From assembly GCA_964510585.1 (NCBI GenBank), contig CAZECW010000157.1, positions 21,063 to 53,062 of the forward strand: a stretch of 32,000 nt of DNA, given 5' to 3'. The notes beneath the pieces are model-generated. The model saw nothing but the letters and a program-made list of their open reading frames with translations, ran no database searches and had not been told where the DNA came from. Positions within the stretch are counted from its first letter, which is position 1; every line of letters begins with the position of its first letter. The position numbers and the translations under genes are program-made. Source of the stretch: an uncultured archaeon (lineage in GTDB: Archaea; Asgardarchaeota; Jordiarchaeia; Jordiarchaeales; Jordiarchaeaceae). Positions 23,048-24,033 of the stretch are shown piece by piece.

Positions 23048-24033
23048 TCACTCTTCGCCGAACAAAATTTTGGATAGTTCTTTTAGTTGCTCTATGCCCC
23101 GGATTTCTTTGTCGTAGAGGGGAACCTCTGTGATGTTAAAGTCGTCGTATATTTCATGTATTTCTTTAAGGTTCTCTAACTGCATACTTCTTCGCGCCCG
23201 ACAAAAAGGACAATTAGGTATGTCTGGATAAACCATATTAACAATTATGTGGTCGCAGGGAATTTCGTACTCATTGAGAGCGGAAAGTAATCGTTCTGTC
23301 TCAAAAACAGCCATTGCCTCAGGTATCATAACAACCACGAACGCTGTACTATCGGGATTCGATAGTTCAGCCCGAGCCGCGTCAATAGTAGTCTTTAGTT
23401 TTTCCAAAACTTCCATACTGCGATCAACTTCACCGCCCTTGCCAATTAATTTTTTAAAGAGTCCAGCTAGTCGCCCAAAGTATTCCCTTATTTTCAGCAT
23501 ATTAATAACCCAGCCGCTGAGTACATCTGGCAACGATAAGAGCCTTAAGGTGTGTCCCGTTGGGGCTGTATCAAATATTACGAGATCATACTCTGGGTTT
23601 TCGATGTATTCAAGTACCTTAGCAAACGCTAAGGCCTCATCTGCCCCTGGAGGAGTCATACCAGTTAAGCCCCCCATACTCTCTAGTAGTGATTGGGCCT
23701 GAGGCTCGGAAAAATCGCCTTGCTCCAGATTTTTCTTGTAATCCTCAAAAGCTTTATGCGGGTCGATCTCTAACCCGTAGAGATTTTTTACTCCCTTGAT
23801 TTTCTTAATTTCTGGACCTATGTGCTGGTCAAAACTATCACTTAGGCTATGGGCGGGATCTGTACTAATGATTAGGGTTTTGCGTCCATGTTCCGCTGCC
23901 CAAATAGCTGCAGCAGCCGAGCAACTGGTCTTTCCCACTCCTCCTTTTGAGGGACTAGTTAAACATACCTAGTTTTTCCTCCGAAGAGTAGGAATTTTAC
24001 TTGTCTCTCTTCAAGTAAATCAGTTATTGTCAT
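23048..24033 (-). CDS. get3: Get3/TRC40 (ArsA-family) ATPase, two exons 24033-23976 and 23946-23048, 318 aa after splicing
   Basis: Exon 1 MTITDLLEERQVKFLLFGG follows an AGGTGGT SD. Exon 2 gives GGVGKT, STDPAHSLSD, DTAPTGHTLRLL and CPFC. Joined Walker A is GGKGGVGKT. Confidence 0.88.
23947..23975 (-). other. Candidate 29-nt bulge-helix-bulge mRNA intron in get3
   Basis: Central helix GAGG/CCUC, two AAA bulges, inner stem ACUAG/CUAGU, outer stem CUUC/GGAG. Cutting after the second nt of each bulge removes 29 nt including an in-frame TAA and restores the frame. Confidence 0.8.

Follow-up and report, generated by a model that had tools for sequence, protein, structure and literature searches.

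A candidate bulge-helix-bulge micro-intron within the Walker A codons of get3 in Asgard archaea

An interrupted get3 gene

The 32,000-nucleotide (nt) stretch analysed here (positions 21,063 to 53,062 of contig CAZECW010000157.1, assembly GCA_964510585.1; hereafter the window) belongs to the genome of a hot-spring Asgard archaeon. This genome, hereafter called G000, is a metagenome-assembled draft of ~3.8 Mb in 217 contigs, and its genus is placed in Candidatus Jordarchaeia/Freyarchaeota. The minus strand of the window carries get3, the Walker A codons of which are split by a short insert. An initial annotation had proposed this insert to be a bulge-helix-bulge (BHB) intron, removed from the mRNA by tRNA-type splicing. 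The features of the gene are the following:

24042..24048, minus strand: Shine-Dalgarno-like AGGTGGT, read directly from the sequence, 8 nt 5' of the get3 start codon and similar in same-genus orthologs
23976..24033, minus strand: get3 exon 1, 58 nt, which opens at ATG 24033 and encodes MTITDLLEERQVKFLLFGG plus the first base of a Lys codon
23947..23975, minus strand: 29-nt insert AAACUAGGUAUGUUUAACUAGUCCCUCAA, the proposed BHB micro-intron, which brings an in-frame UAA and a frame shift
23048..23946, minus strand: get3 exon 2 including the stop codon, which encodes the ArsA/Get3 ATPase body, starting with the P-loop's second half

Our re-reading of the locus agreed with the initial annotation on the coordinates and frames of the AGGTGGT element, of ATG 24033, of the 29-nt insert with its TAA and of the shifted GGVGKT codons. 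It also agreed that the called open reading frame (ORF; 23048..23938, GTG start) opens in the middle of the P-loop, the GTG being the Val codon of GGVGKT. Exon 2 alone matches the Pfam ArsA_ATPase profile (PF02374) with E = 2.4e-89 over profile positions 13-304 of 305. Read without splicing from ATG 24033, the gene encodes MTITDLLEERQVKFLLFGGK, then TRYV, and ends at TAA, which makes a 24-residue ORF at 23959..24033.

In silico removal of 23975..23947 joins the exons as TTC GGA GGA A^AA GGA GGA GTG (the caret marks the junction) and gives a 318-residue protein with FLLFGGKGGVGKT and the sequence GGKGGVGKT; the Walker A motif (GKGGVGKT) is intact only after this removal. Both borders of the insert sit in runs of A, and five cut positions therefore yield one and the same product. 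Among these five equivalent positions, the predicted BHB cut is the one chosen in the initial annotation. The spliced translation also contains TDPAHS, DTAPTGHT and a CPFC motif, and get3 is present as a single copy in G000. The single-domain architecture and the CxxC motif suggest a protein of the Get3 type rather than an arsenite-pump ArsA.

Predicted fold of the insert and its flanks

We folded a region of 66 nt around the insert and derived the cut positions from the established rule for the tRNA-splicing endonuclease EndA, which cleaves each bulge 3' of its second nucleotide. The elements of the motif, from the outside inwards, are listed below with both registers of the outer helix, one canonical and the other found in the minimum free energy (MFE) fold:

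23983..23994, minus strand: 5' strand of the outer exon-exon helix (canonical register 23983..23987; MFE register, all 12 nt)
23932..23944, minus strand: 3' strand of the outer exon-exon helix (canonical register 23940..23944; MFE register 23932..23943)
23987..23983 with 23944..23940, minus strand: canonical outer helix, 5 pairs
23982 / 23945, minus strand: G.A opposition adjoining the 3' bulge
23978..23981, minus strand: 5' strand of the central helix, GAGG, in exon 1, which pairs with 23949..23952 in the MFE fold
23949..23952, minus strand: 3' strand of the central helix, CCUC, in the proposed intron, 4 Watson-Crick pairs with GAGG
23975..23977, minus strand: 5' bulge, AAA, where a cut is expected between 23976 and 23975
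23946..23948, minus strand: 3' bulge, AAA, where a cut is expected between 23947 and 23946
23969..23974, minus strand: 5' strand of the inner helix, AACUAG, which pairs with 23953..23958
23953..23958, minus strand: 3' strand of the inner helix, CUAGUC, which pairs with 23969..23974
23959..23968, minus strand: 10-nt loop, the sequence of which varies freely among relatives and is 1 nt shorter in G001

The MFE fold has a free energy of -24.4 kcal/mol (z = -3.5), matched by 2 of 200 shuffled sequences, and it includes the central and inner helices. Its outer helix is displaced by one base and forms a 12-bp helix made of exon sequence only. The helices GAGG/CCUC and ACUAG/CUAGU, the two bulges of AAA and the mismatched G.A and A.C positions, all named in the initial annotation, are present. 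Its outer stem exists in the canonical reading, but the MFE fold prefers the shifted 12-bp helix. The A.C mismatch next to the bulge is found in G000 but is replaced by a normal pair in three sister species, so that the inner helix has 6 bp. The motif belongs to the relaxed class, not to the strict hBHBh' class. In G000, motifs at least this good have a background frequency of ~0.0016 per position and length, or ~0.008 when five registers are considered, and by these counts the get3 motif exceeds chance expectation. A search of the window against Rfam returned no match.

Distribution, covariation and selection

The insert is found at one site in four species of the genus (G000, G001, G003 and G004), with lengths of 29 nt in three cases and 28 nt in G001. 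It also occurs in other studies, whose independent sequencing runs gave contigs with the 29-nt form (X4) or the 28-nt form (X12 and X13). It is missing from the get3 gene of G005, a fifth species with a complete genome (84% protein identity), and from 25 other Asgard orthologs. Among the same-genus genomes examined, get3 was not found in G002. We rejected as candidates two other Asgard orthologs with internal stops (L025 and L027), which correspond to natural gene ends.

The 28-nt insert of G001 arose by a 1-nt deletion in the loop, and the bulge rule still yields the identical junction; insert length is therefore not tied to the reading frame and is free modulo 3. Such a change is what would be expected of an element excised before translation, and it is incompatible with a conserved programmed frameshift. 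The prediction that the cut rule removes 23975-23947 to leave a 318-residue Get3 was borne out in silico, since the rule gives the correct protein with both 29-nt and 28-nt inserts.

Alignment of the orthologs, which the initial annotation had put forward as a check, suggested that the pairing is kept in the four insert-bearing species. Counted over these four sequences (the DPANN sequence described below was excluded, as its hairpin was misaligned by MAFFT), 98% of the cells are paired, versus 38-65% with the partners slid. The 5' strand GAGG of the central helix is invariant in the four sequences, and the three sister species share the helix-and-bulge geometry of G000. One pair of the inner helix varies on both strands, as C-G / U.G / U-A, and so does a second, as A.C / A-U / G-C; at the latter position, the A.C of G000 is G-C in two sister species and A-U in one. 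Of the 6 inner-helix pairs, 5 accordingly form in G000 and all 6 in its relatives.

In G001, G003 and G004, exon 1 shows synonymous changes and an unaltered frame; it also matches the N-terminus of the G005 ortholog, which is uninterrupted. Comparisons of the spliced coding sequences among the insert-bearing species revealed 14-59 synonymous versus 3-8 non-synonymous differences, corresponding to ratios of non-synonymous to synonymous substitution rates (dN/dS) of 0.02-0.07 at dS values of 0.20-0.35. Ratios this low across the insert imply that the reading frame has been kept by selection since the insert arose. The spliced frame is thus under strong purifying selection, as expected of a gene that is neither a pseudogene nor broken.

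The same cut rule in other genes of G000

The initial annotation had suggested that similar micro-introns might explain other apparently broken genes, and we verified this for six further genes of G000. Each regains a canonical motif under the same rule, which combines a 4-bp helix with 3-nt bulges that are each cut behind the second nucleotide. Four of these genes (ahcY, cbf5, tyrS and pcm) came from family searches combined with the rule. The inserts are the following:

rtcB, G000:C58:3762-3791: 30 nt, in frame, with TGA; CCCG and CGGG 30 nt apart, 3-nt bulges; LPD^AHQGYG becomes LPDAHQGYG
rpl44e/eL42, G000:C73, insert starting at 5719, minus strand: 33 nt, GCCC and GGGC, bulges AAA and AAA; GYGSQP^KP
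ahcY, region G000:C4:19974-23027: 30 nt, UGGG and CCCA; TKWE^FDN becomes TKWEFDNLWG
tyrS, region G000:C4:19974-23027: 30 nt, CUGG and CCAG; EPSG^LFHLG becomes EPSGLFHLG
cbf5, G000:C18:27718: 31 nt, CACU and AGUG; restores GHAGTLDPKVTGVL (GHAGTLDP)
pcm, G000:C187, near 67019: 32 nt, CGCC and GGCG; restores GQTISAPHMVV

Together with get3, these seven genes harbour inserts of 29-33 nt that lie within conserved motifs, share one geometry and have A as the first intron base. The spliced junction of rpl44e is identical to that of the uninterrupted G005 ortholog. In G005, rtcB is itself interrupted (~1452770-1452800) by a 29-nt, frame-shifting insert of very different sequence, at a junction identical to that of G000. 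Two side observations concern these genes. ahcY and the tyrS-type synthetase gene are neighbours, and the insert of each contains a stop and lies in a catalytic motif. In addition, production of mRNA for RtcB, whose own gene is interrupted, would require RtcB in the cell.

We also performed a motif-free census, comparing G005 ORFs with G000 over 2.8 of the 3.58 Mb of G005 (78%). It recovered get3 and rpl44e as carriers of G000-specific inserts; it is blind to introns present in both genomes, such as those of rtcB, and the alignments of candidate sites at the DNA level were too noisy for use. A de novo scan of G000 for BHB motifs bridging ORFs yielded no usable excess over a shifted-cut null, with either relaxed or strict features, because wrong-frame open stretches and operon junctions swamp the signal.

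A get3 insert at the identical junction in a DPANN archaeon

Pattern scanning of metagenome and genome collections, with the central helix left free, revealed a second interrupted get3 gene, in a Candidatus Aenigmatarchaeota metagenome-assembled genome (G041; L252:3710-3736, JAFGFG010000009.1). Its 27-nt insert contains an in-frame TGA and is unrelated in sequence to the Asgard inserts, and the junction, GGN GGA A^AA GGA GGA, is identical to that of Asgard get3. The motif consists of a central GUGG/CCAU helix, AAA and UUA bulges, an inner helix with 6 of 6 pairs and an outer helix with 5 of 6 pairs, with the same G.A opposition. Spliced in silico, the gene encodes an intact Get3 protein of 327 residues, 40% identical to Asgard Get3, and G041 encodes its own EndA genes. 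In the nearest relatives of this gene (79% identity), the open frames are of sufficient length for an uninterrupted get3, and the pattern is missing in four of them, as judged from open-frame lengths and one pattern search. The DPANN insert apparently represents an independent gain. Most of the 115 matches of the pattern scan were rejected as introns, as they correspond to a Shine-Dalgarno element and a start codon in front of ParA/MinD/ArsA genes.

The site itself may be predisposed to such gains, the likely cause being that in every ortholog the pyrimidine-rich codons of F-x-x-F are partly complementary to the purine-rich codons of GGVGK. On average, the 26 intronless genes can form 3.6 of 5 outer-helix pairs in the canonical register and 7.7 of 12 in the longer one, compared with 5 of 5 and 10-12 of 12 in the intron-bearing genes.

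A broader proposal, which in our estimation might equally well hold or fail, is that mRNA splicing by tRNA-splicing enzymes is a regular part of how genes are expressed in Jordarchaeia/Freyarchaeia, affecting at least seven genes of G000 including rtcB. Introns would settle where codons supply the exon half of the BHB motif, and the FxxFGG and GGVGK codons of get3 would represent a predisposed site, where an Asgard genus and a DPANN archaeon would each have gained an intron of its own.

Splicing enzymes and tRNA genes

G000 encodes two EndA paralogs and an RtcB ligase. The rtcB gene (E = 1e-173) is interrupted, with an internal TGA, as described above. The EndA genes are the following:

5944..6522, minus strand: EndA paralog 1, 192 residues, probable catalytic alpha subunit (PF01974, E = 5e-31; PF02778, E = 3e-17)
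G000:C126:19588-20205: EndA paralog 2 (PF02778 and PF01974), without the His

The paralog encoded in the window has Tyr, His and Lys residues in the expected contexts. The two proteins would fit the pattern of an alpha/beta heteromer, the assignment of the subunits being predicted from their sequences. Relaxed motifs are cut only by hetero-oligomeric (alpha-beta)2 and epsilon2 EndAs (PMC5829648), and a hetero-oligomeric splicing endonuclease has been linked to the cbf5 pre-mRNA intron (PMC2738675).

In this lineage, more than 90% of tRNA genes are interrupted (PMC11291895; preprint 10.64898/2026.10.13.758758); neither of these two reports mentions mRNA introns. ARAGORN identified only six tRNA genes in the 3.78 Mb of G000, four of them called with introns. 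This small number fits the heavy interruption of tRNA genes in the lineage, and most tRNA genes of G000 are presumably too interrupted for recognition.

Proposed mechanism and alternative explanations

We consider it highly probable that the 29 nt at 23975..23947 are a BHB micro-intron of the get3 pre-mRNA, removed by EndA and RtcB. Given the anatomy, conservation, selection, compensatory changes, generality of the cut rule and enzyme genes described above, the cutting and joining steps and the enzymes responsible would be as follows. Folding of the transcript would pair the FLLFGG codons of exon 1 with the GGVGK codons of exon 2. Within this outer helix, the 4-bp GAGG/CCUC helix would be flanked by AAA bulges on opposite strands and closed by the 6-bp hairpin of the intron. 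A heteromeric endonuclease, made of the EndA alpha subunit encoded in the window and the beta-like paralog, would cleave both bulges, each behind its second nucleotide. RtcB would then ligate the exons to GGA GGA A^AA GGA GGA GUG, with TTCGGAGGAA joined to AAGGAGGAGTG in the spliced RNA, allowing synthesis of the 318-residue Get3 with an intact Walker A motif. The unspliced mRNA would yield only the 24-residue peptide.

Several points weigh against this reading. The best thermodynamic register gives internal loops of 4 and 5 nt instead of clean 3-nt bulges, and the motif is relaxed, with the G.A opposition beside the 3' bulge kept in all five sequences. The enzyme may recognise either the canonical outer helix or the 12-bp one, and modelling suggests that the outer helix may adopt the longer register. 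The covariation comes from four close relatives only and is not significant in a shuffle control, where 108 of 500 shuffles reached the observed value; we take it as supportive. Two nominally metatranscriptomic runs, which are probably DNA, contain the unspliced form of get3 only; no joint across the insert was found in these two runs or in two DNA runs, which shows only that the insert exists as DNA. In the run collections searched, no RNA run containing the get3 locus was listed. Finally, the coupling of transcription and translation in such an archaeon raises the question of how ribosomes would be kept off the unspliced mRNA.

The relaxed nature of the motif, with its G.A opposition and alternative register, would also suit excision of the insert from the RNA by enzymes other than EndA and RtcB, for instance another endonuclease and ligase. 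We regard this as improbable, although it fares best among the alternatives. Seven genes share the exact EndA geometry and cut positions, G000 encodes the very enzymes known for such motifs, and group I or group II ribozymes are far too large to fit in 29 nt.

Translational bypass could generate the same protein as splicing, so that selection on the frame does not separate the two. Ribosomes would hop from the Lys codon of exon 1 to the AAA that precedes GGA GGA GUG, skipping 28-29 nt; matching Lys codons (AAA/AAG) indeed lie at both edges of the insert in all four Jordarchaeia sequences, with a hairpin between them. However, the other inserts of G000 obey the BHB rule without matched codons: the rtcB junction is GAC^GCA, and the codon before its 3' edge is not Asp. 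In get3, the take-off codon is followed by ACU AGG, without a stop directly after it, and hopping would require neither the 4-bp/3-nt geometry nor the compensated inner-helix pairs. We know of no translational bypass in archaea, and we regard this explanation as very unlikely.

Slightly less credible still is that get3 is a pseudogene, or that it codes for two polypeptides, a 24-residue peptide and the product of the 296-residue, GTG-started ORF. Gene callers do see two ORFs, and the GGAGG right before the GTG resembles a ribosome-binding site. Yet this GGAGG corresponds to the Gly-Gly codons found in every ortholog and abuts the GTG without a spacer, and a GTG-started Get3 would be without strand beta-1 and would have only half a Walker A motif. 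The low dN/dS values extend over exons 1 and 2, and there is no second copy of get3 in the genome.

An assembly or sequencing artefact, conceivable for a draft genome of this kind and raised in the initial annotation, is refuted by the presence of the insert, with natural variation, in independent metagenome assemblies and in four separately assembled species, which makes its probability negligible.

Other features of the window

get3 adjoins a Pst phosphate-transport operon (PstS, PstC, PstA, PstB and PhoU; 24221..28723). The two ORFs directly downstream of get3, at 21830..22582 (minus strand, 250 residues) and 22664..23008 (plus strand, 114 residues), have no Pfam match.

Eukaryote-like genes of the window include those for an E1-like ThiF protein beside an E2 ubiquitin-conjugating-enzyme homolog (17862..19432) and for a Roadblock/LC7 protein (2294..3001). 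In the E2 ORF (19043..19432, minus strand), an N-terminal helix is encoded in frame upstream of the called GTG (19433..19530). This upstream stretch contains no ATG, GTG or TTG, and conservation with G005 begins at a Shine-Dalgarno-like GGRGGT followed by TAA ACG. An upstream exon considered for E2 found no support, as conservation with G005 starts at this element, not at an upstream ATG. The sequence hints at a start codon of a non-canonical kind and not at an intron.

Significance and comparison with known systems

Get3, a conserved housekeeping ATPase unrelated to Cbf5, here comes from a prokaryote closely related to eukaryotes, and its proposed intron lies within its catalytic motif. The gene for RtcB, the ligase needed to rejoin the exons, is also among the interrupted genes. 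Standard gene callers truncate or split such genes, which affects Asgard proteomes and inferences about 'missing' genes. The sites where exon sequence forms the outer helix offer a testable system for the colonisation of protein genes by introns.

The gene 60 of phage T4 resembles get3 in having a short, stop-containing gap in a coding sequence, with matching flanking codons and a hairpin. It differs in that get3 has no stop right after the take-off codon and that the sister inserts of G000 have no matching codons.

In eukaryotes, HAC1 and XBP1 mRNAs are spliced in a stress-regulated manner, by Ire1 cleavage and ligation by RtcB or Trl1; the XBP1 intron is 26 nt long. The likeness to get3 lies in a short mRNA intron handled without a spliceosome, cuts in paired stem-loops, RtcB-type ligation and a change of frame. 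The endonuclease is Ire1, however, not EndA, and stress regulation is a feature of HAC1/XBP1.

The tRNA introns of the same lineage share with the get3 insert the motif, the size range and the predicted enzymes, and they too persist only where the exon forms the outer helix. In get3, by contrast, an mRNA is the host, codons make up the exonic half of the motif and the cut has the further task of restoring a reading frame.

The closest parallel is the BHB intron of cbf5 pre-mRNA, reportedly the subject of work by Watanabe in 2002, Yoshinari in 2006 and Yokobori in 2009. In the literature searched, cbf5 of Crenarchaeota is the only archaeal protein gene documented as spliced by the tRNA-splicing endonuclease, and we found there no report of Asgard mRNA introns. 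Like the get3 insert, the cbf5 intron of Desulfurococcales and Sulfolobales is found together with a hetero-oligomeric endonuclease (a predicted one in G000) and many tRNA introns, and it shows gain and loss among close relatives (PMC2738675). The host gene differs, the get3 insert lying within Walker A codons, in Asgard Jordarchaeia and in one DPANN genome. Splicing of cbf5 was demonstrated experimentally, whereas that of get3 is predicted from sequence. Rather than cbf5 only, at least seven genes of this kind are found in the single genome G000, cbf5 among them. The get3 insert is thus real and conserved, and very probably a spliced BHB micro-intron of the cbf5 type.

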